From Psammoneis japonica (taxonomy: Eukaryota), in NCBI GenBank assembly GCA_008632985.1, contig QPGO01000121.1:1-64000 (forward strand): 64,000 nt of DNA. Reading direction: 5' to 3'. Within the stretch, counting starts at the first letter, position 1, and each line of letters opens with the position of its first letter. The notes under the pieces were generated by a model that was given only the letters and a program-made list of their open reading frames with translations, was not told where the DNA came from and ran no database searches. Position numbers and translations under genes: made by a program. Below, one piece after another: positions 840 to 36,900 of the stretch.

Positions 840-3066
840 CACCCCTGTGGTAGGGGAGCTGTGTGTGTGTGCGTGGTTGTGCGCGCACGGCTTCGCCGTG
901 CGTTGAGTTTTAATGTTAATATCCACACGTATGTGTATATTCCATAAGTAAAAATTCCCATTCCACAGCTCCCCTAAAACTCTAACCACCAAAAACCGAG
1001 GGGTCGGAAGCGCACTTTCGGGAGCTCTTTTTCTCCGCACAAAAAACACGCGTTTCGTCGACTCGACCATGATGATGCCTCGTGGTTCTTCCCCATCGCC
1101 TTCCCAGGACGCCGATCCTACTGACGCCATTGCCAATGACACTGATGCAACAGGCAATGTCATCATTCCGGTTCTGGGTGTGATGCGTACAAAATAAGAT
1201 GCTACAAACTCACACTGTTGTTTGCACGCTCCACCGCCTCCCACAGATGCTGTCACGAATTCCAACGCCGCACCTGCATTTTGGCCCCCTAGCATGCCCG
1301 ATGCTGTTGCTCCTGCCCTTGCTGCCATCACTCCTGCCCTCACTGCCGCAGGTGCTGTTGATGCTGTCATTGCATTTTGCCAATGACGTCCACAATGAAG
1401 TGCCAATGACTCGCACTTCTTTCATTCTCGCCCCACCGCCTCCCACAGATGCTGTCACGAATTCCAGTGCTGCACCTGCGTTTCGGCCCCCTGGCATGCC
1501 CGACACTGTCACTCCTGCCCTCACTGCCGCAGGTGCTGTTGATGCTTGTTGTCTTTTTGCCAACAACGTCCACAACGAAATGCTTGCAACTCACACTTCT
1601 TTCATTCTCGCCCCACCGCCTCCCACAGATGCCATCATGAATTCCAATGCCGTGCCTGCGTTTCGGCCCCCTGGCATGCCCGACACTGCCAATCCCACCC
1701 TTGCTGCTGCAGTTGCTGTTGATGCTGTTGTTGTTTTTGCTTTGGAAGGAACACAATGGATGACGGATGACGGCGGACCAGGAAACCCACGCAACCACGG
1801 CCTGCTGATGGACGACACATCAATGGACATGAATGGTGCCTCTTGGTTGGCTCTCGAGTGCAGTCTAATCTTTGGAACATGCAGACACACATGCAGCTCT
1901 CTGTGGGTTAGAACCTGACAACAATGGATGGCAGGCATGCTTTCACAGTTTTTTAGTTTCAAGTTGGAGAGGTCAGCGAATTGGCATTTGTTTGCAGGTG
2001 ACTTGGCAAGGTTTCAAATGGTGCATGTGACTTGGACACTGCTCTGTTTTCCAGGACCAGGTCATGTGTGCAATTCCACAAGAGGCCACTCTCGCCGTTT
2101 GAGTTCTACATGTGATGTGCAACATGCTGTTTTTGCATGTTGCTAAAATGGAGGCAGGCAGCAACGTGCTTTTGGCAAACACTCACTGTGTTTGTCACTG
2201 TTAGACCTTCAAAACTGGTGCCTTGTCGACAGCCATGCTGCCACTTTGCATGCCGGCACCTTCTCTGCCCGCACTCCATTGGCTGCGTCCTCCTTCACAT
2301 GTTGCTGCGGTTCATCTTGACACTTGTTGTTGGCTCCGATTGGTTCCGCTGGGCTCTGGGTGAGTCTCAATCACCTCCAGATGGACAAGGTTCTGCTTGG
2401 GAACATTGTCCTGAGAAAGGTTGTCACCATGCCTCCTGTCATAGATGCTCCTCTGCCACGCCCACTGAACCTTGACGTCGGTTTGTTGCTTTTGTTTTTT
2501 GACCTGGTTTCGGAGCTGCACCCCAGACGTTTGAGAGAAGGCTCATCAGTGCCTTCCACAACACGGCGATGCGAACGAGAATCCAGTTTTTCCAGGGACG
2601 CAATGACAGGAGCAGACCAATCACGGGCACTGTGTTTGTGTTTCAGGCACAGGATCCGGTGAACAGAACCCAAATCCTCCGGATGGCAAATCGGCTGTGT
2701 TTGGGTAACGACAGCGGGTGCAATGGCACCGGCCATTGCAGGAGGGACTGCCGCATCAGACATGGCAGGCGGGGATGCGTCAGGTGGTGTGGGGGATGAA
2801 GAACGGGAGGTCGTCATGGTCGAGTCGACGAAACGCGTGTTTTTTGTGCGGAGAAAAAGAGCTCCCAAAAGTGCGCTTCCGACCCCTCGGTTTTTGGTGG
2901 TTAGAGTTTTAGGGGAGAATATGGTTCAGGATTTTTCCTGCTACTATTAGCATTTGTGTACAAATGCATAAATAAATGTGAGGACATTTATATAAAAATA
3001 TAATGAATAAGATATAAACTGCCACGTAACCATGACATCACCATATTCTCCCCTACCACAGGGGTG
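840..3066. mobile_element. Non-autonomous TIR DNA transposon, Mutator/MULE-like (9-bp TSD)
   Basis: Perfect 19-bp TIRs cacccctgtggtaggggag (840-858) and ctcccctaccacaggggtg (3048-3066); 9-bp direct repeat cgcgcgcac at 831-839 and 3067-3075; internal ~105-bp inverted repeats at 969-1075 and 2811-2917; no recognisable transposase. Confidence 0.88.
1225..1740 (+). repeat. Three diverged ~180-200-bp tandem units inside the TIR element
   Basis: ccaccgcctcccacagatg...gaattcca...ggccccct.gcatgcccga recurs at ~1231, ~1433 and ~1613; translates as repeated APPPPTDA...AFRPPGMPD. Confidence 0.9.
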
Positions 3067-7127: not shown

Positions 7128-7559
7128 TGTGAATGGATGGCTTTGCTTTGCATGCAGCAGTCGACCAGAGGTGATGCTGTTGTTGTTGTTCATGCTGGAG
7201 CCTTCGCGCGTCGTCGTCGTGCGGTGTGCTGGTGCAGTTGGTGGGAGTTGCACAATGACCCCACCCGCGTTTTGTACTGATTTTCTACGACAAATAGTGT
7301 CCGTTAAATGCTGCGAAAACACGTAGAATTCTACGGAAGAAGTCATAACTTGTGTTATAAGATATTTAAGACCTAAGTAAGATATATCAAATTTCTACTG
7401 AAAGATTGCGTTCAGTTCTTAGTATGTAGAAGTCATACAACGATCACTTCTCATTCCTTTTTCCGGAAAAGGGTGTCATGCTGTACGATTTCGAACCACT
7501 CAACGCAACATCAATCAATTGTGCTCCGCATCAAGCAATTTATCAATCAAGCAATTGAT

Positions 7560-10230
7560 GTAATCTTCTGCCAGCGACCTGACAACAGCACCACAGAGGG
7601 AAAAAGATGTTTTCTGGTGTGTTGCACATGAGGGGGGAAATGGATCTTGAGGGTTGATGTGAGGTTTTGGCATTCTTCACATGCGGTCAATCCAAAACAT
7701 CTTGATGTCTCAGGCAGCAAAGTGCATGACCCCAACAGCCACAACGCTCAAGTGGAAGGGAGTTGCAGGCAGAACAACACTGGCAAGAGCTCTCCAGAGA
7801 CACTCTCACCCATGATGACTTGCAACATCCTCTGTCTTTTGTGCACCACTGGCTTTGCTGGTTGCCGCTGCCCCCAGGCAACCAAGCAAAAGATCAAGTG
7901 ATTTTCTGGGTCAACAAAAAGCAACATTTTCCATCAAAAGCTGTTGTTGAGCACACACACATCCATTTTCCTTTCCAACAACCTGCTGGCCTGCTGCAGC
8001 TGCAAAGTTTCCTCTTCACCCATTGCTTGCACTTTCTGGTGAGAACAGAGCTGGGCTTGCATTTGGTTGTTTCCTTTTTGGCAAATGCCCTGTCCATTGC
8101 TGGCACACCCTGCTGCACTGCCTGGCCTGAGTGCTTCTTCCTTGTCTGCTGTGCTTTTGAGTTGACATCCATTCTAAACCAGAGCTAACTTGGCCATTGA
8201 GTTTGCTGACACTGTCTTTTGGCTCCAGCCAAGGAAGCAGGGTTGCTGCCTTGTGCGCAGCGTGCTTGTTTGTTTGCAGCTTGCATCACCGGCACACCTT
8301 GAGATGAGTTGTTCACAATGAATTTGCAAATTCTGGAGTGTTGTCATTTGGACAAGATGGCAGGTTGGCATTTCTGGCACTTTTGTCATCTGCCACTGGT
8401 GCTGCTGCTCAAGCAACTTGTGCTGCTGGGGGTGCCCCATTTCTCCATGTCAGCAGAAGATTGCAGTGCAGCTGTGGCTGCAGGCTCTGTTGGGCCACAG
8501 TTGCCTTTTTCTGCTGATGATTTTGTTGTTTCATTGTCTGCAACACCCATGAGAGGCTTCAACAGAGAAACAAAAGAGCCAACAGTGCCAGAGTTGGTCT
8601 TGGCTTTGGAGCAGGCAGCACAGCAGGACTGGCTGGCATCAGCGCAGGTGGGGCATGGGAGGATCAGGTGGCACAGGATGGGCAGCAGGTGGGCTCTTGG
8701 AGGAGTGGGCAGCTTTGAAGCATGCAGCTTTGGAGCTGGTGACTGCTCAGTTTGGCTGGAGGAGCAGCCCCAGTGCATCATGATCTCTCACAGCAGCACA
8801 AGCAGTGTGGGGGACATCCCTCTGGCCAGCAACTCCATTGTGTTTGACCTTAATTTGCATGATTCTGTGTGGGAAAATCCAATGTGCTGCATGTGTTGCT
8901 GTGCTGCGTGGTGGGCCCATGCGTGGTGAGACTGGGTTCATGTTTCTTGACACTGGTGCAACATGTGAAAAAACACATGAGAAATGACAGCAAGTGGTCA
9001 CTCAGCAAAGGTGCTTGCCATTTCTGCAAATCCTTTGATTGTTTGTGCTGTGGCATTGGCCAAACTTTCACAAACACCAGCAAAGTCATCTGCACCTCAT
9101 GGTGTCAAAATCCTGGAATTTTTGCACTGCAGACCCCCCACGAAGTTGCAGGTTGGGGCAGAGCCACACTTTTGGCAAACCAGACAATGAGTTGCTTCAG
9201 ACAGCCACTTTGTGCCTCCACCAAGTGTGCAATGGCAAGTTTAAAGAAGCTGTCAAAAACTGGCACATTCATTGCTGCACCTTTCATTGAGGTGCCACTT
9301 TTGCATGAGTGGGCACCACTGCTGCTTCATTTCCAGCACATCATCAAGCCCAATGTGGGCTTGCTTCAGCAGCACTGTCAACAGCATGTTGCAATGCAAA
9401 GCATCTTTTGTCACACCAAGAAATCACAAAAGCATCAGAAAAGTGGCTTGCGGTGGTGTGCCCCTTTCATTTGGTGCTTCAGGATCATCCATTGTCATGC
9501 CAAAACTTGTGGAGCAATGGCAACGTTGTTTCGGGATCACATTTGCATCAATGGCATTGTTCACAACTGGCCCCATTCCACAAACACAAACAGTGCAAGC
9601 ATGGTCACACATTGTCAACACTGTTCCACAAAAGTGCTGCTTGCCATCAATGTGAAAAACAAGACTGTGAAAGGATTTTGCATGTGTGCCACCAGCCAGA
9701 GCCACCAGCGAGAGCCATCACCACACACGGGCCTTGTTGACTGTCACATCTCCTTGTTTGTGCTCTGCTCCCTTGAAGTTTTCATCCACCAAACATGTGG
9801 TTTGTTCAATCCACAATTCTTGTTTTTGATGCAGGCTCTTCATTGAAGTCAAAGAACGATGGAGGCTGTCCCTTTTGGGAGGAGTGTGTTTTTTGTGAAC
9901 ACCACCCGGCATGTGCAATGCTTTCTTTTGTGCCTCTGACAAAGAAAGGCTCTCCTGAAAGTTCAGTAAAAATGTCCACCAAGCCAAGTGATGCAACACT
10001 CACATGCATCTTGAATGAACTGGTGAATGTCCAGCGCACACGTGTCATTGTTGATCGGCTGATCATTCATGGTGCCTCCGCCAAAACATGAGAAAACTGG
10101 CGTCAAGGCACACAAAAGAATGAACACCTTTCAACACTTTTTGAAACCTTTTTTTAACCATTTTTTGCCGGTCCTTACCTCACATTGTCTCCTAAAGCCG
10201 TTGTCTATTTCACCACAACGAAAGAATGCA
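7560..10230 (-). mobile_element. Heavily mutated transposon remnant, tentatively a MULE-like transposase
   Basis: TpA/CpG-depleted block with only broken Cys/His-rich ORFs; minus-strand fragments VFHIDGK and QKWHL resemble MULE DDE-domain motifs; no TIR or TSD found. Confidence 0.45.
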
Positions 10231-12539: not shown

Positions 12540-14638
12540 CCGTCGAGATCGGACGCTGTTTTTGGCAAGTCAAATGGCATGGCAATTGTTTATCCCAACA
12601 TTACGCAAAGCCACCTCTGCACAGAAGAAAGTGGATGTCAGACCCTCTTTGAGTACAATGCCAAAGTTGTTTCTCCTGTTTTCCAACCAAGGACTCACAT
12701 CAAAAAGTGGCTCAGCTCCTCTGGGATTGATGGCACACAGGTTTCTCAGAGAAGGCACCTCGTTTGTGGGAACAATGCCCACCTGCATTGGTTGGGTCTG
12801 CAAATGGGACATTTCAGGGGAACCTTGAGTTTGGCTCTGCAGGAGTAAATTCCAAGGGAACCACACACCATGCCATCTTGTCCCCAGTCTAGCCACAGTT
12901 GCCCTGAGCCAAATCCAGTGGCAAAATTTCAATTGTTCTAACATGGCAGGGACACTCTTGAGGAGTCAGCCTGGCACTTCTCTCATTGGCATTGTGCTGG
13001 GATCTTGAGCATGGAGTGTTGAACCAGCAAGTCAAAGTCGCCAACAAAAGGGAATCCGACAAGATTTCTATGCCACTTGTTGCACTTGCCTTGGCAGTCT
13101 CCAGCAGTTGTGGGACACCTTGGTGCATCTGCACAAACTCTGCAACTGCTGCAACAACAGGCATCTCTTGATGCTGACTGACAATCATGCAAACCAAATG
13201 ATTCACTCAAAACAGTGAGAACAAAACACATGCAAGGGATTGATGGCAGTGCTCATTTCTTCACAGAAGGTTGCATCAGCCAACTGCATCAGGGTCCATG
13301 CATCTTTCTTGTTGGTGCATCTGGGTCACACAACTTGACACCTCTGAGTCTCACAACTTCACATTCCTGACACACTCCTGCTGCTTGCATTGATGTCTCT
13401 TAAAACACAGTCTGACAATGCTTCTTGGGCTTGGACCCATTTCCATTTGAGACACAAAGCACGCTCTGTCCCAACACAAGCCATCAAGTTCATTGTTGGC
13501 ACCCTCCAGGTCACAGCGTCAAAAAAGGTTTGCATGCCCCATCCAAAAAGTCAATCAAATCATTGAAAGCATTGGCAATTTTTCATTATGCACTCTCTCC
13601 ACAAAATGCCATGCAAAGGCACATCTCTTGTCTTCTCAATGCTGACACTGAAGTCCATGGACCAACCAATTGATCCACAACCATCTGCCAATTGTCTTTG
13701 GGGTCAATTGAGGACCTCCACATTCTTGTGAGTCCACTCTGTCTCTTGGGACTGGCTCAAACAATCTTGCAATTGAAGAAAAAAAATGAAACACACCGTG
13801 AGCAACTCCTCTCTCTTCTCAATCTTGAGCAAGCTCAAATGGCTCATTTGTCATCAGGATTGTGGGGACCACAAACCCAATTGGCGCTGGTGCCACAGGT
13901 GGGACAGCTGACTGTCAATTTCTCCATCAATGGGTGGTTGACATCACCTCTGTCCAGGGCAAACTGCAACCCACCATTCCCAAAGCCTGCAATGCACTCT
14001 TCTTTGACAATTCATTGCTCTCATCATGCTTTGCAGTGCTGCTGCAACATGTGCTGCCTTGACACAATCCCTTGCATCCCACTGCCTTTGCCAGCATTCT
14101 CCTTGGTCTTGTGATCTCTTGCATGGTGCACATCATCCACATCCTGGTGCATGTTGACATCACATTGTGAGGTGTGAAGCAAACATTGGCACAGCAGTGG
14201 ACATGCATTCATGTGCCTGTGGCTCCCAGGTGCTTGCAAAGTCTTCATGTGGGTCCTCCACTTGGCGGTGTCTTTTCTTCCACACACAATTCCCACAGCC
14301 ACTGAAAACAGTCAAGGCAAGTGCAGCAAGTGGTGAAGGAGACCATGTTGGGCTCTCTTTTAGTGACATTGACTTGCCAGCAACATTTGCTCCAAAAAGT
14401 GAGAACAAAATACATGCAGGGGATCAATGATGGCACTGATCTCTTCACTGAAGGACACACCAGACAGCCACGTGAGGATCCACACATCTTGCAGTTGTGA
14501 GGTTGGAAGTCTTGAGAGCAAATTTCACAAAGCAAAGTGCAAATTTAAAGAAGACTCAGCATTTGCAATCTGGCAGCAACAAATCTCTGACAAGAGCACT
14601 CCCCAAGAAATCACTGCACAGCCAAGCAAAGCTGTGAA
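12540..14638 (-). mobile_element. Degenerate repeat/TE of unassigned family (homologous to 62.7-64 kb)
   Basis: TpA/CpG-depleted; 13010-13400 aligns by eye with 63420-63810 (shared ctcttgatgctga.tgacaatcatgcaaaccaaatgattcactc). Confidence 0.7.
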
Positions 14639-14911
14639 NNNNNNNNNNNNNNNNNNNNNNNNNNNNNNNNNNNNNNNNNNNNNNNNNNNNNNNNNNNNNN
14701 NNNNNNNNNNNNNNNNNNNNNNNNNNNNNNNNNNNNNNNNNNNNNNNNNNNNNNNNNNNNNNNNNNNNNNNNNNNNNNNNNNNNNNNNNNNNNNNNNNNN
14801 NNNNNNNNNNNNNNNNNNNNNNNNNNNNNNNNNNNNNNNNNNNNNNNNNNNNNNNNNNNNNNNNNNNNNNNNNNNNNNNNNNNNNNNNNNNNNNNNNNNN
14901 NNNNNNNNNNN
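14639..14911. other. Assembly gap (N run) followed by poly-G
   Basis: N run read directly. Confidence 1.
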
Positions 14912-14929
14912 GGGGGGGGGGGGGTGAGG

Positions 14930-15370
14930 TTGCATTGAAACTGTGAAGATGCAGTTGGCTTGATCAGAGAGGTCAGAAAAAGAGCTTGCTTGGGTCATCT
15001 GTTGGAGCATCTGGCTCGGGGGACACAACATGTGGCTGACCCAGAAATGAAGTTGTGTCTTTTAAACCATGACGTGGCATGTTGATGACTGTTCTTTGGA
15101 GAACATCCTCAGTCATTGAACTTGATCGTGATCTCACCAACTTTTTGGAGTGAATCATCTGGCTTAACAACAACAACAAGTGGCACCTGGTGATGCCCAA
15201 CAATCCATCAGTTTGCATTCTGTGCATGATGTCAAGGCAAACCACAGCCAACACAGCAACCAGGGCAAGTTTGGCAAGTGGCACAGGAAGCCCAATGGGG
15301 AGGATTTCCTTTTGGTGACTCAGACTTGCCGGTTCAACATTCACTCCAAAGAGTCATTGGCACTTGTTGA
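14930..15370 (+). repeat. Copy of the unassigned repeat family (similar to 20330-20700; inverted relative to the 13.0 and 63.4 kb copies)
   Basis: Shares atcatctgg..., caacaacaagtggc, gccaacacagcaaccag.gcaagt and gtggcacaggaagccca with 20480-20690. Confidence 0.75.
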
Positions 15371-15399
15371 GTGTGCACTGACTTGGCAAAAGTCCACAA

Positions 15400-18300
15400 G
15401 ATCATTCATGAGTGTGGCAGAGCATGCAGAAAACAAGCAAAGATTTGTGACCTTCACAAGGATGATGGTGGAAGGGACAACAGAAGCCATGCCAAGAACA
15501 AGAAGTCTTTCCAATGTGAAATGAAGTTTTGTCCTTCTACACTGGACTGCAATGTGCACAAAGAAGGTCTGCAGATGTGTGCAGAAGGAATTCAAACAAG
15601 GCAAATGTGCTGCAAGATCACTGGAGGACATGAAGCACCTTGACTTTGAGGCCAAGCAAGAAACCAAAATTGAAGCTGTCAACAACCACACCTGAGGAGA
15701 ATGCAGACACTCACATGAGAGAGACCTGAAGAAAAAGGAGTGCAAGGACAAACAGATGGAACACAAATTCCATGCCAAGCACAATGAATGCTGCTCAAAA
15801 CTGAAGCAGTTCAATGAAAACAAATCAAGGCATTTGCTTTGATCATGGATGATTGCTGCACAAACCACATGAGGAACAGGGTCATGAGTGACCCAAGCTG
15901 CAACAAAATCAGGGACAATCCAATTGAGTTGCCAAAACTCATCCATTCCCTGATGTTCCATTCAATTCAAGGTTGACACCCATTCCATGCATTGACCAAG
16001 TTCCTGAAGAACACACCACAGGTCGTGAGGCAACAATGAAATGAGTCGTCATGGATCACTTGTCAAGATTCAAGAACAAGACTCCACAACAAGAGATGGC
16101 CTGGGTGGTGAGATGCCAAATGGGTTTGTTGAGAACACCAAGGAGCACAAGAAGGAAAGCAACAGCACCAAGCAAACTGAGCTGAAGAAGACACTGTTTG
16201 ATGCCTGAATGATGCACCTGTTTGTCAAGCACAGTGACAACCATTGCCACAAGACTCTGAAGAAGAGCTTCATGAGAGACTGCAGTCTGTGAAATGACAT
16301 GCACCCCAAGGACTTAGACAGGGCAATGGATGTCTTTTTCAACCATGAACAAGATGACAAACAGCAGAGAAGCAACTCAAAGAACCATGACCGTCACAAC
16401 AAAAGCAGGAAGGAAAAGAATGACAGCAAGAACAAGTGCCAGAGTTGTGCAGAGAAGGCCAAGAACAAAAGCAGAACAACACGCCACTGTTGCAGCAAAG
16501 AGGATCAAAAATCCCCGGAGTGCAGCCACAAAGACAAGATGGCTGCCAAAGATTGGGGCGCAATGAGACCAGAAGAAAGCCAGATGCACAGGGACAGAGT
16601 TGTGCACAAACAAGAGATGGCAATGGAGACCACTCTTTGGCAGACAGTGACATGAGCATCAACGCTGCCAGATTGACAAGATCCACCCATTCAACCCAAA
16701 GCAAGGGATGCTTGGCACTGGTTGCAGCTGGTCAGCAAACTGCAAGAGACAAGCATGAGCAAGTCAAGTGTGGGTGTTGAGACTGATGAGATCATTTTAG
16801 ACAACAGATCTGCCCTCAGCATGGCAGCAAGCTGGAGACCAGTGCATGATGCATGACCAGCAAAGACCAAGATTGACCCACCCACAAATGCAGGAGTGTG
16901 CACCCTGGACAAGGATTGCGCCATGCCAGGATGGGGTGACATGGAGTTGGGATCAAAGGGCATGATGGCAAATGTTCCAAGCCTGAAGGATGTGAAGGCC
17001 AAGCACTGCTTGACATGCAAAGACTGAGTGGCATAAAAGTTTTGACTGCTGAACAAGAAGACTGGCAAACAAGTCACAGTTTTTCAGGCAAACAACATCA
17101 AACTGCACACATTTGCAGTTTTTTGACCATGCCAAGGGCCTGCAAAGAGCAGAGTCACAAGCAAACATGAACCTGGTCAAGAAGAAAACAAAGAAAAGCA
17201 ACAAGAAGCACAGGAGTGCACTGGAGGCCATTGTCCCAACCATGAAGCACAACACCACAGGCTGCTCCAAGAGGAAGGTGGCAAACATTGAGTTGGCACT
17301 GCAGCTGTGCTGCAAGGCCAGTGCACCAGTGCCAGAGATTTCAAATGATTCCTTCATTCCAATCAGGTGAAGAACCTGTTCATTGTGCCAGAGGACATGG
17401 ACAGGATGGTGGACATTTGGGAGCTGCCTGTTGCTGCACTGAAAGGCAAGACCAAACAAGCACACCATCCCCAAGTGAAAACTGATGTGACAGTGACACC
17501 ACCCAAGATGTGCGGCAAACAAAGAGAAGGCATGATGCTGTGCATCTGCATCATGGAAGCATGTGGCACCAAACTGCTGCTCACTGTCAACAAGATGATC
17601 AAGTGTTGTTGATCAAGTGTGTGGCTAAAATCCAAGGAGCGGGCAGACCTGTGTGAGTTGCCAGACATGGTGCTGTGACAACACAGCAAAGCAATGTTCA
17701 ACACAAATTTTGTCAAATGCAACCCCAAGTTCAAGGTCATGCTTGCTGAAATGGCCAGCAGGACAACCCTCAAGCTGTTGCCAGTGAGTGCAAGCAACCA
17801 TGTGCCCAAGGTTGAGTGCAGCATCAAAGCTGTTAAAGAAAGGACCCCAGCTGCTGTGCACCACCCACCTCCCAAGGCCATGCCCAAGCATGTGTGCAAA
17901 CATGCAGTCACAAAAACCACCATGGAAAACATGCATCTGCAGAAAGAGGGCATTTCAAACACCTGCAGCCCACACACCATCATGCAATGCCAAGTTCTTA
18001 ACTGCAACAAACATTTTGAATTTTCCTTTGGGGAATTTGTTCTCTGTCTCATTTTGAGAACAACCCCACCAACACCATGGAGACATGGGCATTGACAGCA
18101 TGTGTGTCTGTGCCAACATTTGACTCTCCAAAAAGGACATTGCACCACGAACCTGCACATGGGGAAACTTCTCAACCCCTGCAAATGCTCCCTCCTCCAT
18201 GCCCTCAACTGACACATGTCAGAGCAGTCAAACAGATGGCACAGGCCCAGGGTGCCAAAGACTTTAAATTTGTGGGCAAAGGCAGAGACAATGTTTGCAA

Positions 18301-19600
18301 TGCTGGCAGGACTGCAGGAGTGGAACAAGATGACAATGACAAAAACAAAAATGAAGACCAAGAAAGTGAAGACAGCACTGACAAAGAATGCAATGAAATG
18401 GACTCAGATGAAGAATCCAAAGAAGCCAACAACACACATCCTGGCTGGTGAAAGGTCCAGTCCCAACCAGCACGACAAGGACACAGAATCAGAAGATGAC
18501 AGCTGCAGCCACCACAAAGAGGATGACCATGAGGACATTGATGATGCAAAAGATGACAACAAATCTCACAAAGACACCAAGGAGCTGAAGATGGAACAGA
18601 GGAAAAAGCCAGAGCTGCAACCCACACAACCACAAGGTCTGGAAAGTCCTTTGCACAAAGGCACAAGAAGCATGAAAAAATGGTCCTGTTCACAGGGGTG
18701 ACCCAAACTGATGAAGAGCAGGAAGAGATCACAAAGCTGGGTTGCTGTGCCTCCATCTGCAACCAAATGTGAGTCCAAATCCAGAGAACACCTTTGGGTG
18801 CAATTCCAAATCAGCAATGGCATCAGTGCAGTTTGTGTGCAAGACAAATGACAGAGTTTCCAAGCTGCCGGAAAGGGTGTTTTGTTTGCCCAACAGCACC
18901 CACTGCATGAATGCCTGAAAGCACTCAAAAACAGAAGGGGCATGATGCCTTCAAGAAGGAGACAGAGAACAACTCCACAATGGGGTGTGTGCTTTGCGCC
19001 AACATCTGTCAAAGAAATTGCTCCAAGTGAAAGGGTCAAGGCCACATGTGCCCCAATGTTCCTTGCAGAGAAACAAGACAGTCAGACTCAAAGGATGAGT
19101 GGTGTGCAATCTACAATGGGACACCAACCACGGAGCAGCTGGACAAAGATGAGTCAGCCAGTCCAGCGGTGTCATTGGAAGGAGTGTTCATGACTGCAAT
19201 TGTTGACACCAAGAAAGGGCGCAACATCATGAGCACCAACATGCCCAACTCATTCATCCAAACTCAGGCTCCAGAAGTCAAAGACGGAAAGGATGGGATC
19301 GTGATGAAGATCACAAAAGTGCCAGCTGATGTGCTTGTCAGCATTGATCTTGACCTTTGTGGACTGCACATGGTCCTGGAAAAGGGCAAGAGACAACTTT
19401 GCATGCAAGTCCACAAGAATCCAGAAAAGATTGGGTTTGTGCTCAACCCATGTGACCCATGTGTTGCCAATTGCACTGTCAATGGGAAACAGCACGCGCA
19501 AGATTCCATGTGGACAATCTGTTGTTGAGCCACCGGAGCCCAAAGTGAACAACAAATTTTTAGGTTGGTGGTTCAAGGAAGCCCTGCTTGCATGACATGT
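15400..19600 (+). mobile_element. Ty1/copia LTR retrotransposon remnant (CoDi-like), hypermutated
   Basis: Protease-like ILDNRSALSM (~16790), integrase-like NHVPKVECSIKAVKER (~17800), RT-like ASPAVSLEGVFMTAIVD...NMPNSFIQT and GFVLNPCDPCVANCTVNGKQ (19150-19490), in copia order PR-IN-RT; LTRs not identified. Confidence 0.85.
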
Positions 19601-20900
19601 CATGGACTGGTCTCTAGAGATCAATGAACATGTGTTTGATGCAACACTGATTGCAGCTTTGAGGATCTCAAAGAGAAGATGTCACAAAAAGACAAGGACC
19701 ATGCACTGAGCTGTGGAGCACTGGCAGATTGCAGGCAGTCACACCAACAGACAAGGGCTCAGACTCCACCCAAGTTGGAGATTTGTGGATGACAAAAGCG
19801 CAGCACTCAACAGTGCAACAGTGGCAGGCTCAAGCCTGTGACATGGACACTCAAGGGAGTTGTGGTCCCTTGATGAAGAGAATCACAAGAGAAGCCGGTG
19901 AAACCCAAGACCAACACAGACTGGTTGGGAACAAAACTGGAACAATTTTTGATGCCAAAAAATTGGCGGCATTTGTCCATCATTGTGACATCAAGGTTGG
20001 AACGCAGGCTGCATGATGTGCTGTGCACATGTCGCAAAATGGAGTTCCCAGAGCTGCTCCGAGAGAGAACTGACAATTGGATCAGCAGCTGCTCCCTGAT
20101 CCACTGGTTGACATCATCAAAGAAAGCATCCATTGTGCCTGCATTGGGCATTTTGTGGAAGCCACAAAGGGCTGCACAAAAGACATGGCCACTTTCTCAG
20201 ATGAAGGACGTTGTGCCGCCAATCTGCACCATGGCAGCCAAGATGTCAAGTGTGTTGTTGGGAGGAGTGGCACCCCAGAAGATGAGACTGTCAAGTTTCT
20301 CATCCTAAATCCCTGGAACATTGGCAAGAGTGGCAGGGTGTGGAGTCTTTGGCCTGGAAATGCAGCTGCTGCATCTTTTGAACCCTGGCATGGCGCATGT
20401 TGACAGCATTGATGGCTGCTCTTTGGAGAGCATTTTTCATCATTGATTGTGATCTTGCCAACTTTTTGCGCTCACTGTTTGGAGCAAATCATCTGGTTTG
20501 ATCACAACAACAAGTGGCGCTTGCAAACATCCAACAATCTGTCAGCACACGGTTTGCATGCACGACATTGTTGGGGCAAGCCGCGGCCAACACAGCAACC
20601 AGAGCAAGTGCAGCGAGTGGCACAGGAAGCCCAGCAGGCACCCCTTTTGGCTACATTGATTTGCTGGTTCAACATCATCAGGAGCATTGGAGCTTTCCAA
20701 GGAACAGCTGCTCAGTTTTTTTGGGATGCTTTGCTTTGTTGCTCGCAGAAAACAACCCCAGAAAGTGCTTTTGCAGAAGCAGGTGCGAGCTGTTTGTGGC
20801 TCCCTCATGCTTGTGGCACACAGTTCCTTCATGAGCACACCTCAAAAGCATCCCAGCACTTGTCTGCACATCTTCCATGGGTGTTGCACAGCATCTGTTC
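19600..20900 (+). mobile_element. Degenerate copy of the unassigned repeat family
   Basis: TpA/CpG-depleted; 20330-20700 is homologous to 15000-15360 and to the reverse complement of 13010-13200. Confidence 0.65.
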
Positions 20901-21295
20901 ACTCACTTCATGAGACACAGCGCGAGAGACAGTGACCCGCACAATTTGCTGCGGTTCCGACAGTGAGATTCGATGATGCAACAGCGAGACGCAGCCACGT
21001 CGTTTCTTCCGCGCCGATTGGCTGCAACATCATTGATGAAACGAAAGCGTTTCCCGCCTTGCGAACTCCGTGTCAATTCTCGCTGGATGGAAGAAGCCTT
21101 TGGCATCTGTTTCTACGAGCACTTCAATGACAGTTCTGTAGGATACCGTAGAATTTGTACTGTCCACGTCATTACTGGTCACGGATGAGCTGATGTCACC
21201 ACTTCTGGCATAAGTCGAAGAACACGGCCACGTCAGCGGCGCTTTTCAGAAATTCCCTCCAACGTTTTCAAAATTTTCGTTGCTCCTGCTCCACC

Positions 21296-22496
21296 ATGAA
21301 GATGACCAACACTTGTAAACTCCTCGCCGCGCTCGGCGTCTTTCACTATGCCGTGTGGGGTACTGCCGCATTCGTATCTCAAGTACCAAAGGTAGGAATG
21401 CCAGCTCTTGGTTATCGCTCGAGACGTGGACGTGGACGTCGATACGAATACGATACGGACTACGAGTTGGAGGAACGGGAAAGAGTTCTAGAGGAGAGGG
21501 AAAGGGATTTGGAGGAACGGGAAATGGAAATGGTAAGCAGTTTCAGACTCTAAACTCTTTGTCTGTATTCCCTATTAGTTCTCACAGAGGACTCACCTGC
21601 GTGATGTTTTTGTGACACAGAGAGACAGAGACATTGAAAGAGAGATCGACATGGATCGCTTTGATCGTAGAGGAGGAGATATTGTATATGATGGGCCCCG
21701 TCGTGGGCGTAGTACTGTTGGACGTGACCTTGGCTTTTCTTCTGGCAGAGGGCCCTATGCACGTCAAGGCAAGGATCTAAGAGGTCCACGTCGTGAAGTA
21801 GTTCAAGGAGGGTCGCTCAAGACGTGGTCATTTGATACCGACGTTGTTGATAGCGTGCGAGTTCTGCTCGAGTCTGAGGGTCGCCCGTTGGATGCAGACA
21901 TCGAATTGTGGCAGGGCCCCGACAACACTCCTCATAAAATGAGGATCTACTCCGAAGATGGATTTATGCGCCCCTTCTGTGCCGTGCTTGACACCCCAGG
22001 CAGCCCCAACACCATCACGGTTCGCAACAACGGCATGTTGGAGTTCCCCCTCGATGCATACGTAACGGAAGACTCCATCGCGACCGGATCTGTTGGCGGC
22101 GAAACGGCTGCTATAGCTTACGACATGGTTTCGTACCCAGAGACAATTCAAGGAGGCGCTCTCCGTACATTCGACTTTGACTCCACCGTCGACAGTGTTC
22201 AAGTCTTGTTGGAGAGCGACGGCCGTCCTTTGAATGCGAGAATCGAGTTACTCCAGGGGCCCAACAACAAAAAGCAAGTCGTCGAGTTGTACACGGACGA
22301 TGGAAACTACCGTCCGTTCTACATGATTGTCGAAACACCAGGAAGTGGAAACGTAGTTAGAATTGTAAACTCCGCCACCATGGAATTTCCCTTGTACGCA
22401 AGGGTAGAGCCGTACTCATTCACCGAGTATGAATACGGAACCGGTCGTGGACGCCGTGGCCGTGTTGGTCCATACAGCAGACGAAATGGGTACTAA
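21296..22496 (+). CDS. Algal protein of unknown function with two tandem homologous domains, plastid-type presequence; intron 21533-21620
   Basis: Signal peptide ending TAAF; duplicated QGG(S/A)L(K/R)T.SF...VLLES.GRPL.A.IEL.QGP.N...PF....TPGS.N domain; phase-0 GT..AG intron keeps frame. Confidence 0.8.
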
Positions 22497-29747: not shown

Positions 29748-31397
29748 TTACAAGGGTGGCATTGATTTTGACGACAAGCGACCGCTTATCATTGACTCAT
29801 CGTTACTGCTGACTTTCTCTCCAGTCCACCTGGCCAATCGCTGTGTCTGAACTCCATGAAGTGCGCAAAGTGAAATGAGCCGTTCCCTCAAATCATGTGT
29901 TTCCTTCGCTGCACGCGGTTGTCGTCGCTTGGTGGCCGTTATCATTACATTCTTACTCGTGTGCTCCCCGCCAATAAACTCAAACACTTGAACATTGTAA
30001 TTTGCAATCTCCAATAGCAAAGCTCGAATGGAATCCGTCGCCGTCTCAGCGGCACGTTCACGGTATATGTTGTGGCGGAGGATGTCCGCTAGTGGATGAT
30101 CCTTGCCCATCTTGACAACGTAGGGATCCAGTTGCTTTCTCACTTCCTTGTGGCAGCAGGGTGCAACAACAATCACATTTGCATGACCCCGAATCCCAGT
30201 CCACAAGGCATCGTCTGTGGCAGTATCACAGGCGTGCAAAGCAATCAGCACATCTAGTGAATCTTTGTCGTGCTGGTCACTTTCACTTGACAATAGACTT
30301 TCGATTGTTCCTTCTTCAAACTGCAGCCCCGCAAACTCAGGTCCGAGAGAACGAGCAATTGCGGTGATTTCTTTGATGAGTTTTGGGCGCATATCGATAC
30401 CGCGAGACTGAACCATTGGTCCATGAATCTTTTCGAGAAACGAGTGCAACGAAAAGGTAAGGTAGCCGCGTCCGCAACCCATGTCGACAACCGAAATGTT
30501 GGTCACGTCTTTGTCATTGAATAGAGAAGATTCTACGAGACCTCCCACGATTTCTACAAACTTTTGGCACTGTCGCAACTTGGACGACATGCCCGGGCGT
30601 GGTTTTCCATCTGCTTTGGACAGACCCAGTGCCTGCAGAAATGGCGCATCGGAAGGAAGTGGGACCTGCTTTGTGCGATCATGAGCTGTCGGAGACGCGG
30701 CTGCCCCATTGTTTGCGCTGGACCGCCGTTTCCAAAGTTTGGGTTTCTTTCGTTTCAGGTCCATTTCCCACGTGCTGTCGGTGCAAACGAGCTCACCGCG
30801 TTGAATGCCCAATTCCGAACCGACAGGATTAAGGCCCCGTTCTCCCCACTCAGACATCACCACGCTATTGTCACTGGATGAAGGCAGTAACAACGAATAC
30901 AAACCCTTTTCAACTTTATCGACTCTCCAATTCTTTGCCACATCTGTTGCCCCATGATACTTGATGGTAATCTGGAGAAACGTTGTGTCTTGCTTTGCTT
31001 GTTTCTTGCTGTTGTTTAGAACAATCATGCGTCCCTGTACTTGTCGTATACAGCCTCGTAATCGTCCCTTATCGCCCTTGTGCTTGCCTTTCTTCGCAAC
31101 CGACGGCCCTCGCAAATTGAACGACACAAAGGATTCTTTCTGAACCGATTGTGTGATGTGCGTGATAAAGTCACGAACAGTTGCAGTTACTTGAGGTGAT
31201 GCGGAGGTGTCAGATATGAAAGGTTTAGATAGACTATCCTCTGATACAGATGACGAGAAGAGAATTGATGCAGAGTTTGTCTCGTGCCATCTCAACTTCG
31301 TTGTTCTGGAGGAAGTTTGTGTGCCTTGGAAACCGCATGCCAAACTCATCATGATGAATGAGAATGAAGCCAACATCATTCTGGAGCAAAATTTCAT
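29748..31397 (-). CDS. SAM-dependent methyltransferase (Methyltransf_32-like) with plastid-type presequence
   Basis: VVDMGCGRGYLTF, IALHACDTATDDAL, VAPCCH, EHTSKNVMI; signal peptide ending ACGF. Confidence 0.88.
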   Translation of the reverse strand: MKFCSRMMLASFSFIMMSLACGFQGTQTSSRTTKLRWHETNSASILFSSSVSEDSLSKPFISDTSASPQVTATVRDFITHITQSVQKESFVSFNLRGPSVAKKGKHKGDKGRLRGCIRQVQGRMIVLNNSKKQAKQDTTFLQITIKYHGATDVAKNWRVDKVEKGLYSLLLPSSSDNSVVMSEWGERGLNPVGSELGIQRGELVCTDSTWEMDLKRKKPKLWKRRSSANNGAAASPTAHDRTKQVPLPSDAPFLQALGLSKADGKPRPGMSSKLRQCQKFVEIVGGLVESSLFNDKDVTNISVVDMGCGRGYLTFSLHSFLEKIHGPMVQSRGIDMRPKLIKEITAIARSLGPEFAGLQFEEGTIESLLSSESDQHDKDSLDVLIALHACDTATDDALWTGIRGHANVIVVAPCCHKEVRKQLDPYVVKMGKDHPLADILRHNIYRERAAETATDSIRALLLEIANYNVQVFEFIGGEHTSKNVMITATKRRQPRAAKETHDLRERLISLCALHGVQTQRLARWTGEKVSSNDESMISGRLSSKSMPPL

Positions 31398-31975
31398 ACT
31401 GACAATTAAGTCGCCTCTCTAGCCGCGTCTAATACATCCTAAAGGGCGCCGCCCAACTCATCCATCATAAGTATCGCCGCCATGGCCGTCCATGCCGCCA
31501 TCTATCGGCATCACAGTCTCACTTGGGGTTTACGATAGGCTGATGTGCTGTTCGCACGGAATGGATGGATGGACGGACGCGGACGCGCGGACGGACGTAC
31601 GCGGAACTCGAATCATCGAGTGATCGTGAGTGCGTGATAGACTCCTCCAACTCTAGCTACTACTAGTAGCTAGAGCTAGAGTAGAGAGTAGTCTACGAGC
31701 GGAAGCTACCATAAAGTGCCGATAAGAAATCAAAAGGGACAGTCGTAGCTCTCTAGTATTTTATCTTCTAAGCATGTGCTTCACGTTTGGCTGTAGCTAG
31801 AAAACATTTTGCTGGAGAGAGAGAGAACAGACAGCTACCGCTAGGTACTAGACTTCCCAACACGAAAGCTTTGGTTTTAGGTACTCTAGTAGAGGTCGGA
31901 AGAGATAAAGATAAAGTTAAAAATGAAGTTAAATATACAGCACGAAAATGAAACCCAGTGTCCAATAATATGCAG

Positions 31976-33992: not shown

Positions 33993-36900
33993 ATGACACC
34001 GGGGATTCTTGGCTTCGTCTCCGAGGTTGCAGAGACTGTTGCAAGTCACCTGCCATCGAAACTCGCTTCTGTGGAACTACCAACACTTTCAGCCACGTCT
34101 CCAGAAGAGCGACTGCAACGCCATGTTCCAAAGAGATTAGACTTGCATTATATTACAGAGCGGATAATTGGAATGGGTCAGCCAGCAGAAGCAGCTTCTC
34201 CTACGAGAATAGACAAGGGACGAGATGTTATTATAGAAAGGAAGCGCTCCGTGGAACCCGATGAGAACGATGTATCGCCCACAGACACGAGCACAGCAAA
34301 TGGCCCGATATCACCAGAAGAAGAATCTGCACCGCAATCGCCATCATCACATGTTCAAATAATCGAACTGCCGCCTCGAATAGCGAAAAAAGCTGGGAAT
34401 TCTCCAGCTACTCTCAGCAGCTTTTTGAGTCGGCGCCACCCAAAGCACTTTCTAGTGGTCAATGCATCCGACCAAGAGGCTGACGATCGCACGCTACTCT
34501 TGCTCAATCGACAAATTATTCGATTTCATTGGTCTTCTCCCTGTATTGAAAAGTCGGAAACACCATCGCTTTCTCAAATGTTTGATGTATGTTACGCAAT
34601 ACACGCGTACTTGTCGCTGGACGAGAAGAATGTAATGCTTGTGTACTGTTCCAACGGAAGGACCCGAACGGCCATTATCGTGGCGTGCTACTTGAAATTC
34701 TCGCGAGTTGTCAAGGACGCGCTGGATGGGTTTCGATTATTTTGTCAACGACGGTGTCCAGATCTTGATGCTACAAGCATTTCGGATCACATACCGCCGT
34801 CTCTCAAGGTGTTTTTCAACAATTTCAACAGCTGTGTCGAGCTCGGGGGATACATGAATCCGAAGCCGCTACTGCTGCGCGCTATTGCATTGCAGGGTGT
34901 TCCTGTGGATGATAAGCCTTGTATTGATATTTGGGATAGCCAACAACAACATGTGTATTCGTCGCATCAAGATTTGTGGTTGGATGACGATGAGCAGAGC
35001 GCTCAGCAACAGAAAATATCAACCTCTCAGTGGGCTGACGAGGAAGGGTTTTATCGGGTAAACAAGATTCTTGCTGGGGACTTTGTGTTGATTTGCCGTT
35101 TCGGTGGCTTGCATGCGGATGATTCAGATGATCCAAGCAAAATGCTGTTTCGTTACGCAAACAGCTCTGGATTTTTGTGTATGGGACCTTATGAGTTTCC
35201 GAAACGGAGGGTAGACATGATGAGACGCTATGATGCTTCGTTTGACGAAGAAGACTTTTTACTTACTTTCATGTTTGACTCGAGCTTGGATGATGCAGCA
35301 GCTGAGGAATTCCCGGAGCTCTGCCAACCATGTTCCGAATCCGTACTGCCTTGCATACTTGAGGGGCCAGATGCTATCAAGCGCGGATTTCAAATCATTG
35401 GGGAACGGCACGCCGCCCGTCCTTTAACGAGCGACGTCGAGCTGTTGGTTTCTGAAGAAGCTGCATTGGCATCACTTGCATTGCAACTTACAAACCATGA
35501 TGTTGCTGGGGCGCAAGAATTGTTATCTGGGAAATTACTACAGCCAGAGTTGCGTCGCGTTGGGGAAGAAGCTCGGGTAGAGTCGGAAGAGGCTGGCCCA
35601 GATCGCACTTCCACTACTCGCAAGAGCTCGTTCGGTGTGACTGGGGTTCCGGAGCTCACTTCAGAGAAAGCTTGCGCAAACATTCTTGGAATTTTGGATG
35701 AAATAGATGTTGGGGGCGAGATGGAATGGATCGATCGTGTCGATGGCGATCTCGTGGACAATTGGAAACGTCAACCAGTGAATGACGATGGCACATCTCA
35801 ACGTAATGAACTTTCCGCAGAGCTACCAGTCGCTTTGTACGACCCTCCCATGATGCCGAATAGGGGTGATCTTGTGGACGCTTTTGGATCATACAACGTG
35901 TTTGTCCATCCTACTGCTCAGGATCGGAATCATGCCGACTGGCGACAAACTTCTGAATGGGGCTCTCGACCGCGTTTGCCAATGCACCGCGGTCGAAAGC
36001 GGCGGCGAACGACGAGTGCGGAAAATCGCCGTTCTGCAAAAAAGAGCCATGTGGCCGAGCACACGTTGATGGATGATGATGCCTCGTCAGCAATGGAGTT
36101 TCTCATTGATTTACCCCACACCGGTGTAACCCTTCAACATTTGCTGACTCTTCAGGATGCCTCTCAACGATGGATACCTGAAAAAATGGAAGCGTCAGAG
36201 AGTCAACCGCTAAACAAGGATGCTTCTGAAGCGTCAAAACAACCCGTCCCGACCGATTCTGTTGAAACAGAACGAATACGCAATGAGCCTGCCGATTCAA
36301 ATATCAAAGCGGAATGTCGTGATGGGCAAACGGTGCCCAAGGACACAAAATCAGAGTCTGGTGCAAAGTCTGAGTCTCAAGCTGAGAAAAAGATGATGCC
36401 TGGCAAGAATCTAGAGACCCAGGACAAACAAGCGGACGGCGATTCGAAAGCAATTTCCTCGACGCCCAAAGATGATAAGGACACAAAAGAGTCTACTGGC
36501 GACAAATCGCCAGAATCTGAGAAGGAAAATATTCCTCAGGGAAAGGATGATAAAAAGAAAGGTGGCGAAGTGCCGTTGCGGGAGGATCCTGAGTATGTCA
36601 AGGTGAGTACGATCCCCGAGTTTCGGATACGTTCAACCACCCGTTGCTTTCAGCATCGCTCACTCTGTCGTTTCGTGCTTTTGTTGTTCACGTACAGTTC
36701 TTCAGAATGCTACAGGTCGGACTCCCAATGGGAGCGGTTCGCAATGCTCTACAGCGAGCTGGGAAAGACCCGGACGTTATGGACTTGGACCCTAACAAAA
36801 GCCTGAAATCACAGCTGGGGAGTGGAGAGGACGAGAAAAGAGGAGACAAAGATGATGGTCCTCCATTGAAGGATGATCCCGAGTACTCCAAATATTTCAA

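Follow-up and report, generated by a model that had tools for sequence, protein, structure and literature searches.

What process could have replaced the tyrosines of conserved reverse transcriptase (RT) motifs with cysteine or histidine is the question raised by positions 19046–19528 of the window, by which we mean the whole 64,000-nucleotide stretch of contig QPGO01000121.1 from the diatom Psammoneis japonica that was analyzed. An earlier note on this DNA, made from the sequence alone, had proposed that TA dinucleotides were ancestral at these motifs and were removed on both strands.

A decayed Ty1/copia element and its tyrosine codons

The stop-to-stop ORF at 19031–19528 (frame 2, plus strand) matches two RVT_2 (PF07727) proteins with E values of 2.9e-20 and 5e-13, and a profile built from 12 relatives recovers it at 4e-39. 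A direct Pfam scan of this ORF gave no RVT_2 match, even at E values up to 10; transposon domains were likewise absent from the three sets of window ORFs scanned against Pfam (18, 6 and 40 ORFs), and a homologous-protein search among proteins of near length returned none for the RT ORF. The blindness of Pfam to the window ORFs is a consequence of hypermutation. Judged by homology, 19046–19528 is the N-terminal half of the RT of a decayed Ty1/copia LTR retrotransposon on the plus strand at ~15.08–20.68 kb, a class assignment that derives from Ty1/copia RVT_2 homology only and is made above the level of any CoDi clade.

The element is flanked by direct copia-type LTRs with approximate ends. The 5′ LTR at 15081–15339 (plus strand, TG...CA) aligns to the 3′ LTR at 20399–20675 (plus strand) with 194 identical positions, 51 transitions, 11 transversions and 30 gap columns, the identity of 76% rising to 88% in purine/pyrimidine space; inspection of the LTR ends revealed neither a recognizable target-site duplication nor a primer-binding site. 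The gene order is that of copia elements, with tblastn placing the integrase part of related polyproteins upstream of the RT part on the same strand: an integrase remnant with four in-frame stops occupies 17328–18173 (plus strand, frame 3; copia polyproteins match it in tblastn at E values as low as 3e-22), and the N-terminal half of the RT lies at about 18852–19580 (plus strand), spread over three frames (tblastn, BLASTP and family HMM), with the polyprotein alignments covering 18863–19580. The RT remnant is damaged by two frameshifts around 19495–19540 and by the deletion of 18–19 residues after 19411. The family HMM match to it is confined to positions 125–364 of 676, and profile positions 365–676, which cover the RT C-terminus and RNase H, have no tblastn or HMM match in 19546–20400. 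Their expected place, 19581–20398 (plus strand), is a hypermutated segment with only 2 TA left, and its depth in run X1 is 60–82, about single-copy, as against 110–1285 elsewhere. These parts are either lost or have diverged too far to be recognized, which marks this copy as a remnant and leaves the family assignment unaffected. Run X1 has 380 contigs with ≥80% likeness to the family, which is thus present in many copies; in the window, tblastn of 152 copia proteins gave no match outside 16.1–19.6 kb. A PF25192 gene at 21579–22496, downstream of the element, marks the host as a diatom.

Within the RT remnant, the GFVLNPCDPCVAN motif at 19433–19471 (plus strand) has TGT at 19451 in place of the near-invariant Tyr of NPYD, while in frame 2 of the same strand LCGLHMV at 19355–19375 has TGT at 19358 and CAC-ATG at 19367–19372, and QLCMQV at 19394–19411 has TGC at 19400. 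In BLASTP alignments, NPYD(A/P)CVAN and IYGGYVAYERGEKVLYV of the relatives face NPCDPCVAN and LCGLHMVLEKGKRQLCM of the window, and relative P0002 shows GFVLNPYDPCVAN opposite GFVLNPCDPCVAN. Among 152 relatives, of which 115–122 align at each Tyr position, Tyr is found at 19451 in 104/122 (Cys 2, His 1), at 19400 in 75/119 (Cys 18), at 19358 in 54/115 (Cys 12) and at 19367 in 48/119 (His 8). The NPYD position is clean, and the other three are Tyr only by majority or plurality, some relatives already having Cys or His there. The Tyr to Cys/His replacement claimed in the earlier note is borne out by these counts; the possible objection that the relatives share Cys/His fails at 19451 and holds in part at 19400 and 19358, where Cys occurs in 10–15% of them. 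At the eight Tyr-plurality positions in the window, Tyr is kept at 0/8, with TGY at 4/8 and CAC at 2/8. Residues that are Tyr in relatives correspond in the window to Cys (29%), Phe (14%) and His (11%), against Tyr 50%, Phe 18% and His 5% in the control between intact relatives. The integrase frame has no Tyr in 282 codons and 6% Cys, versus a median of 1.2% in relatives. Both counts uphold the view that TA was ancestral and was lost even at constrained residues. The suggested conversion of tac gtg to cac atg also agrees with the alignment: the Tyr-plurality position 19367 is now CAC, and the consensus Val at 19370 is now ATG, with the G>A change right after C. Reverting TGY/CAY to Tyr in silico did not bring the hoped-for rise in the profile score (127.9 to 128.0), but the reverted score stayed above all 30 random same-size reversions, whose scores fell, averaging 104 and reaching 116 at most.

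Depletion of TpA and CpG in bounded blocks

Three blocks of the window (7576–10034, 12655–20920 and 62700 to the end) have a TpA observed/expected ratio (o/e) of 0.02–0.08 and a CpG o/e of 0.03–0.37, against about 0.5 and about 1.0 in their flanks. The element interior at 15346–20405 holds 12 TA, where ~319 are expected from base composition, a shortfall much too large for chance. Falls in strand-symmetrized dinucleotide frequency are seen for TA and CG only: TA stands at 0.32% in the blocks compared with 3.5% in the flanks, while intact copia loci have 5.1%; for CG the values are 0.74%, 6.0% and 3.8% in the same order. TG and CA are up in the blocks at 11.6%, from about 7.3%, and AA/TT is not depleted (8.2% versus 7.6–8.5%). 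Comparison of intact ORFs (TG 7.1, CA 7.9, TA 4.7 and CG 4.2%, summing to 23.9) with the element (TG 10.3, CA 12.9, TA 0.2 and CG 0.6%, summing to 24.0) establishes a mass balance in which the gain in TG+CA equals the loss of TA+CG, and GC stays at ~0.48 as TpA falls ~15-fold. Only 38 TA survive, 31 of them in a TAA/TTA context (mostly TTAA, TAA or TTA); they could be sites that resist the process or TA that arose by later mutation.

The block that holds the element begins with older TA/CG-depleted repeat DNA (12655–15078, no strand assigned), delineated by purine/pyrimidine-space self-BLAST, alignment and TA/CG positions; it contains LTR-like pieces of the same family in inverted (13015–13386) and direct (14291–14490) orientation, and an N gap at 14639–14911, one of two in this draft scaffold. 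Past the 3′ LTR, a depleted tail at 20676–20920 reaches the block end, where a CpG-dense stretch begins at 20921. The separate block at 7576–10034 (5 TA, 17 CG, 295 TG and 292 CA) has no similarity to the copia element and no Pfam or protein match; a purine-periodicity scan gave no clear coding frame, and the homologous-protein search with its 327-aa ORF (8863–9843) had no match among proteins of near length. The block at 62700–64000 runs past the window end and includes an inverted LTR-family copy at 63428–63792. A partly affected region at 1084–2802 (13 TA, 68 CG) contains tandem units of ~200 bp at 1193–1738. What leads us to use the term repeat-restricted is the evidence from the copia family and from the tandem units, together with composition, 7576–10034 and 1084–2802 standing outside any family assignment.

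Alignment of ~2 kb in purine/pyrimidine space against 8 intact loci gave 807 TA site pairs, counts that are pseudo-replicated because they pool related loci: sites that are TA in these relatives read TA in 1%, TG in 31% and CA in 30% of cases in the window, against TA 31, TG 13 and CA 12% between intact loci, and their CG sites read CG in 2%, TG in 19% and CA in 31%. Retention relative to the intact-locus control is 0.04 for TA and 0.07 for CG, with the remaining 14 dinucleotides at 0.5–1.1. The low CpG o/e of the blocks and the loss of most of the relatives' CG sites fit the decay of presumably methylated CpG.

Timing, strands and alternative readings

Could the TA loss be secondary to CpG decay, either as a Duret–Galtier normalization artefact or as collateral error-prone repair (mismatch repair with a Pol-eta-like polymerase) near deaminated methyl-CpGs? 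The two depletions share the same blocks, and elevated CpG mutation is able to lower TpA o/e indirectly, as PMC3829696 describes. However, the TA frequency is down ~15-fold in absolute terms, which excludes the ratio artefact, and obligatory TAY codons are gone. The tandem units at 1193–1738 lost TA much faster than CG: CG survives in the two units alike at 11 sites and is missing from one of them at 10, a loss of ~0.31 per unit which predicts ~1 CG-derived swap where 8 are observed, while TA is retained in both at 0 sites, a loss of ~0.9 per unit. The TA loss is therefore no by-product of CpG decay in these units. Similarly, 18 CG remain versus only 3 TA at 19.6–20.9 kb, and 80 intact metagenomic copia loci, with CG o/e down to 0.12 in some, have TA o/e of 0.45–1.09 and, among 1501 600-bp windows, none below 0.2. 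WA is the error motif of Pol-eta-like polymerases, and this signature is also out, AA/TT being undepleted. On this evidence, a secondary origin of the TA loss is unlikely.

Comparably improbable, in our estimate, is a process without targeting, i.e., a genome-wide context-dependent bias against TA that has reached equilibrium in old unconstrained DNA. The host background is indeed TA-poor already, with an o/e of about 0.5, and the element is old, with non-YR transitions at 15/106 LTR sites and 10–11 transversions, so that a slow process is as compatible with the data as a burst. What speaks against such a bias is the sharpness of the block borders, which lie within ~100 bp; apart from the blocks and the 1–3 kb region, the TA o/e of 1-kb windows never falls under 0.28, compared with ≤0.08 in the blocks, and the AT-rich intergenic stretches adjoining them are rich in TA (e.g., 7275–7440 and 2900–3060). 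Biased gene conversion was also considered and is out, as GC is unchanged and CG is lost too.

The two LTRs of the element were identical at integration but now differ by 10 TG<>CA swaps, with each of six control double-transition swaps at 0–3, and a second, independent pair (13015–13386 and 63428–63792) has 13 such swaps versus 0–3 for the controls. Hence, the change took place after integration and on both strands, which cannot be reconciled with RNA editing or RT error. Editing in the retrotransposition cycle, whether as ADAR-like A>I on RNA, APOBEC-like C>U on minus-strand cDNA or RT errors, could claim in its favor that G>A makes up 29/56 of the sense-strand changes inferred for conserved codons, more than any other type, and that CG sites became CA (31%) more often than TG (19%). 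TA sites, in contrast, resolved evenly to TG (31%) and CA (30%), Tyr>His is seen alongside Tyr>Cys, and the tandem repeats at 1193–1738, which are not retroelements, have the same swaps; this kind of editing is thus a very improbable source. The earlier claim that both strands were hit is confirmed by these proportions and by the Tyr codons themselves (TGY 4 versus CAY 2), and its argument against one-strand editing or RT error is strengthened by the LTR swaps. Other copies in run X1 have TA where the window reads TG at 16602 and 16900, and swaps at 4 listed places.

We give no more credence to the idea that an active element had little CpG and UpA by nature, as a composition kept by selection, even though it is these two dinucleotides that are kept low in RNA viruses and in cytoplasmic RNAs (PMC3829696). 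Near-invariant Tyr residues are gone, there are frameshifts, in-frame stops and a deletion, the LTRs and non-coding blocks are depleted equally, the o/e of 0.02–0.08 lies far below anything seen in the 80 intact loci, and Pfam fails on every ORF. An artefact of assembly, chemistry or contamination, for which one might point to the draft scaffold and its two N gaps, can practically be set aside: the borders at 7576, 10034, 12655 and 20920 are away from gaps, the pattern tracks the element anatomy, and the stretch is matched by Logan contigs of run X1 with 0–6 differences per piece, although this run is probably the source of the assembly and so no independent check; bisulfite-like chemistry would neither remove TA nor respect element borders. 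The element was listed in no RNA run and in one DNA run only, which is probably the assembly's source.

A TpA-directed process and its parallels

The reading that we favor, and deem probable, is that of a dead Ty1/copia RT remnant subjected to a post-integration, DNA-level, repeat-restricted transition process converting CpG and TpA to TpG and CpA on either strand. In this element and the other repeat blocks of the window, both self-complementary pyrimidine-purine dinucleotides have been turned into TpG or CpA, and TAY (Tyr) codons thereby into TGY (Cys) or CAY (His); the TAA and TAG stops being gone, all six frames are open. The CpG half is probably ordinary 5-methylcytosine deamination in methylated transposons. 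The TpA half would require a separate TpA-specific process (A>G, equivalent to T>C on the opposite strand), uncoupled from CpG loss and running at roughly 10–20 times the rate of background transitions in the same DNA, no slower than CpG decay. As to mechanism, we speculate that an enzyme-driven lesion arises at the palindromic TpA step in silenced or repeated DNA—either adenine deaminated to hypoxanthine or a miscoding TpA-directed base modification. The outcome of such a lesion would be that of fungal RIP in mirror image.

The closest parallel is fungal RIP of the Neurospora type, which is confined to repeats, as the present process would be. Both have sharp borders and dinucleotide specificity, give only transitions and affect either strand; each copy is mutated on its own, and transposon ORFs are ruined to the point where homology searches no longer find them. 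RIP is a C>T change at CpA, which creates TpA and lowers GC. Here, in contrast, TpA is destroyed by A:T>G:C changes and depleted ~15-fold, CpG is lost too and GC is unchanged at ~0.48; copies did resolve independently to TG or CA, yet 19567–20314, single-copy by depth, is TA-depleted to an equal degree. Diatoms carry RID-like DNMT4 genes (PMC9998398). Methyl-CpG decay of silenced transposons, as in vertebrates and plants, is similarly a CG>TG/CA change limited to transposons and accounts for the CpG half, but it offers no reason for the loss of TpA, which equals or exceeds that of CpG in completeness and can precede it. Like ADAR hyperediting and APOBEC activity, the process would inactivate retroelements by clustered A>G (or G>A) transitions; ADAR even has a 5′-U preference. 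Unlike those one-strand, pre-integration activities, the changes in the window came after integration and are symmetric for TA.

RNA viruses and mRNAs share the under-representation of CpG and UpA (PMC3829696), but there it is moderate and selective and the protein is kept, whereas in the window it is near-total, in dead DNA, with conserved Tyr lost; for mammalian DNA, that study found no mutation bias that removes TpA. With diatom Ty1/copia (CoDi) elements the copy shares the diatom host, integrase followed by RT, RVT_2 homology and LTRs, clade placement lying outside this comparison; unlike the CoDi elements as described, it is dead. Diatom transposons are CpG-methylated (PMC2806351 and PMC11842555), and the passages of the former that a term search brought up do not mention such hypermutation.

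A TA-specific mutation process aimed at repeats is apparently undescribed: our literature search, which left out most subscription journals and may thus have missed an earlier report, found no TpA hypermutation in transposons of diatoms or other algae. To our knowledge, all well-understood transposon-directed point mutation acts on cytosine, as in RIP, methyl-CpG decay and APOBEC. More tentatively, and short of favoring it, we raise the possibility that a dedicated diatom system, using a putative adenine deaminase or miscoding modification, acts against TpA of repeated or silenced DNA and inactivates transposons by A:T>G:C changes on both strands; as part of the same tentative reading, it would be a genome defense opposite to fungal RIP in chemistry and outcome, and distinct from cytosine methylation.

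On the practical side, DNA free of TAA and TAG looks like long ORFs in six frames, so that false genes are called, and transposons that escape homology tools, as they did Pfam here, leave repeat content under-annotated; alignment in purine/pyrimidine space restores the lost homology. If true, repeat-restricted erasure of TpA via A:T>G:C would be a new class of change, either a mutagenic genome defense or an epigenetic side effect, and would imply an enzyme or DNA modification new to science in a major marine algal group.

Tyrosine codons of the decayed copia element

The element, a decayed Ty1/copia LTR retrotransposon on the + strand (~15.08-20.68 kb), carries its LTRs as direct repeats at ~15081-15339 and 20399-20675; other members of the LTR family are found at 14291-14490 and, in inverted orientation, at 13015-13386 and 63428-63792. 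Alignment of copia polyproteins among 152 relatives recovers an integrase remnant (17328-18173, frame 3) and an RT remnant spread over three frames (18863-19580), with two frameshifts at ~19495-19540 and the LYG region gone through a deletion of 18-19 residues; a profile search for the RT C-terminus and RNase H (profile positions 365-676) gave no match in 19546-20400. The family is multi-copy, since 380 contigs align at ≥80% to the stretch in the sole public run that contains it, which is probably the source data of the assembly itself. Directly 3' of an N gap (14639-14911) stand 13 consecutive G (14912-14925), probably an edge effect of assembly or sequencing.

The three RT peptides quoted in the earlier note, GFVLNPCDPCVAN (19433-19471), LCGLHMV (19355-19375) and QLCMQV (19394-19411), are all present in frame 2 of the + strand, within the stop-to-stop ORF 19031-19528. 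A Pfam scan of this ORF and 17 neighboring ORFs found no domain, even at E up to 10. The ORF matches two PF07727 (RVT_2, copia-type RT) proteins in a large protein collection (E 2.9e-20 and 5e-13) and a profile built from 12 relatives (E 4e-39). The NPYD(A/P)CVAN of the PF07727 proteins aligns with NPCDPCVAN in the window, and their IYGGYVAYERGEKVLYV with LCGLHMVLEKGKRQLCM.

The claim that tyrosine was ancestral and has become Cys or His is borne out: none of the eight positions with Tyr as plurality residue (≥10 aligned relatives) retains it, the codons now being TGY (Cys) at four, CAC (His) at two, and TGG and TTT at one each. Judged by the aligned residues, the NPYD position (Y in 104 of 122 relatives, C in 2, H in 1) is the clean Tyr-ancestral case, and positions 19400 (Y 75/119, C 18), 19358 (Y 54/115, C 12) and 19367 (Y 48/119, H 8) rest on a majority or plurality of relatives. 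Taking all alignments together, the window has Cys (29%), Phe (14%) or His (11%) opposite the relatives' Tyr, as against Tyr 50%, Phe 18% and His 5% when intact relatives are compared with each other. Tyr is absent from the 282 codons of the integrase frame and occurs once in the 166 of the RT ORF (a surviving TAC at 19112); Cys makes up 6.0% of both, whereas 64 intact loci have a median of 1.2% and at most 2.3%. The rise in homology score that reversion might have brought did not appear, the profile score moving from 127.9 to 128.0 when all 14 TGY/CAY codons were returned to Tyr in silico; this nonetheless outperformed 30 random sets of 14 residues changed to Tyr, which lowered the score (mean 104, maximum 116).

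Conserved positions differ from the consensus at 74 of 158 sites, with 47 explicable by transitions alone and 27 requiring a transversion. At conserved codons, inferred A>G changes have T directly before them in 11/14 cases (chance 41%), T>C have A directly after in 5/6 (57%), G>A have C before in 16/29 (40%) and C>T have G after in 4/7 (55%), in a count that takes the best-fitting ancestral codon and thus leans slightly towards fit. G>A is the most frequent inferred codon change in the element.

Block-wise depletion of TA and CG

The missing Tyr codons reflect a wider compositional change that comes in blocks. At 8-10 kb and 13-21 kb, TpA o/e in 1-kb windows falls to 0.02-0.08 and CpG o/e to 0.03-0.37, while TpG and CpA stand at ~1.6-2.7; at 63-64 kb, TA o/e is 0.10 and CG o/e 0.25, and in the remainder of the window they are near 0.5 and 1.0. 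Outside these repeat blocks and the 1-3 kb region, no 1-kb window has TA o/e <0.28. The block borders (~7576, 10034, 12655, 20920 and 62700) are sharp, and none of the five is an assembly gap. After strand-symmetrisation, the blocks, the flanking DNA and intact copia loci have 0.32, 3.5 and 5.1% TA and 0.74, 6.0 and 3.8% CG, respectively; these are the only dinucleotides to drop so, while TG and CA go up, AA/TT shows no decrease and GC is unchanged at ~0.48. The loss of TA and CG balances the gain of TG and CA: intact copia ORFs have TG 7.1, CA 7.9, TA 4.7 and CG 4.2% (sum 23.9), and the element 10.3, 12.9, 0.2 and 0.6% (sum 24.0). Among 80 related metagenome loci, partly retrieved by a pattern with the NPYD Tyr and hence biased to intact copies, TA o/e is 0.45-1.09 and CG o/e 0.12-1.32, and none of their 1501 600-bp windows has TA o/e <0.2.

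A CpG-dense stretch (20921-21081, ~20 CG in 160 bp) adjoins the end of a depleted block and sits upstream of a diatom pyrenoid-shell protein gene (ORF 21579-22496; PF25192, E 4e-85), which marks the host as a diatom; one possibility is that the stretch acts as an unmethylated promoter island and fixes the block border there. The long internal tandem repeats of host genes at 36593-37852, an ORF matching the WASH-complex CCDC53 domain in six stretches, and at 39855-40790 have normal TA and CG, unlike the repeat blocks.

Direction, strands and timing of the changes

As transitions leave the purine/pyrimidine class as is, we aligned the element to eight intact loci in a two-letter alphabet (~2 kb, 75-76% identity). 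In site pairs pooled over these mutually related, and so non-independent, loci, the relatives' TA sites (807) are TA in 1%, TG in 31% and CA in 30% in the window (31, 13 and 12% in control intact loci at similar distance), and their CG sites (687) are CG in 2%, TG in 19% and CA in 31% (controls 23, 17 and 14%). Measured against the control, TA retention is 0.04 and CG retention 0.07; the remaining 14 dinucleotides lie at 0.5-1.1. TA sites resolve symmetrically and CG sites favor CA on the sense strand, a hint of different mechanisms behind the two halves. In small counts, where part of the surviving TA and CG may be new mutations, the blocks retain 38 TA, of which 31 sit in TAA/TTA (12 of them in TTAA) versus 37.5% expected from the flanks, 1/38 is in RTAY versus ~32% expected, and 14/87 surviving CG are in GCGC versus 4.7%. 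The residual TA is mainly TTAA, CTAA/TTAG or GTAA, with RTAY almost wiped out.

The LTRs of one insertion are identical at integration. Those of the element differ over 256 ungapped columns by 51 transitions and 11 transversions, including 10 adjacent TG<>CA double changes, while six other kinds of double-transition swap occur 0-3 times each; a second, independent pair of LTR-family copies has 13 versus 0-3. Such a swap is the product of an ancestral TA or CG resolved independently on opposite strands, and normal composition predicts ~20 ancestral sites in 256 bp. Among the 40 listed of 476 places where other genomic copies differ, TG/CA swaps occur at 15608/9, 16847/8, 16852/3 and 19045/6, and TA stands opposite window TG at 16602 and 16900. 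These differences place the mutation after integration, on DNA and on both strands, upholding the earlier note's view that both strands were hit and its argument against one-strand RNA editing or RT error; ADAR-like RNA editing, cDNA editing and RT error are excluded as the main cause. Non-YR transitions at 15/106 LTR sites indicate that the element is old; under a gradual model, we estimate TA loss at roughly 10-20x the background transition rate, assuming an ancestral composition equal to the median of the relatives.

Separate losses of TA and CG and their possible causes

The change of TA and CG into TG or CA took place on DNA after integration, was restricted to the blocks and affected both strands. 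The CG half would be deamination of methyl-cytosine, CpG methylation of diatom transposons being documented (PMC2806351, PMC11842555). The TA half would require its own cause. The disappearance of TA does not simply follow from CpG decay. In the region 1084-2802, 68 CG survive versus 13 TA, with no TA and many CG between 1291 and 1865. About three tandem units of ~200 bp each (1193-1738), which read as a Pro/Ala-rich ORF, differ mainly by TG/CA swaps: CG is common to both units at 11 sites and lost in one at 10, so that a loss of ~0.31 per unit predicts ~1 CG-derived swap, versus eight observed, and TA is common to both at none. At 19.6-20.9 kb, 18 CG and 3 TA are left; the opposite is seen in some metagenomic copia loci, poor in CpG (o/e as low as 0.12) with normal TA. 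An inverted duplication of ~115 nt (arms 969-1085 and 2801-2917, one difference, CG vs TG) gives each end an ATG and a promoter/5'UTR-like stretch, and thus two convergent gene starts facing the TA-poor interior; the arms retain their own TA.

TpA is the other self-complementary YpR step, and its neighbors matter; for the TA half we therefore favor, speculatively, an enzyme with duplex TpA as its substrate in DNA that is repeated or silenced. This might be adenine deamination or a miscoding modification directed at TpA. Possible leads are tRNA adenosine deaminases, whose target A follows U, and the thymine hydroxylation of some protists, with its preference for TpA. RID-like DNMT4 genes, present in diatoms (PMC9998398), would account for the cytosine changes only. 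A strictly homology-triggered process is hard to square with the segment 19567-20314, which is single-copy by depth and still fully TA-depleted, unless its copies have diverged beyond the 80% limit. The error-prone polymerase signature at WA motifs would deplete AA too, yet AA is not depleted. The ratio artefact of CpG decay, described for human DNA (PMC3829696), can neither lower absolute TA nor delete Tyr codons. ORF 29748-31418 (-) encodes a SAM-dependent methyltransferase (Methyltransf_32/31 domains, E 7.5e-37), for which no link to the TA/CG loss is seen.

A full-text literature search that covered few subscription journals returned no description of TpA-directed hypermutation of diatom or other algal transposons, and a term search of the CoDi paper (PMC2806351) found no mention of hypermutation of this kind; given this coverage, an earlier report may exist. 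Neurospora RIP makes TpA from CpA, whereas the process in the window is its inverse in outcome, removing TpA. The loss of TA and CG may be a form of repeat-directed point mutation.

With TAA and TAG gone and only TGA stops left, all six frames carry long ORFs in the blocks (12655-20920, 7576-10034 and 62700-64000), with 93 of ≥60 aa in 9 kb. Gene callers would predict too many genes in such TA-depleted blocks.
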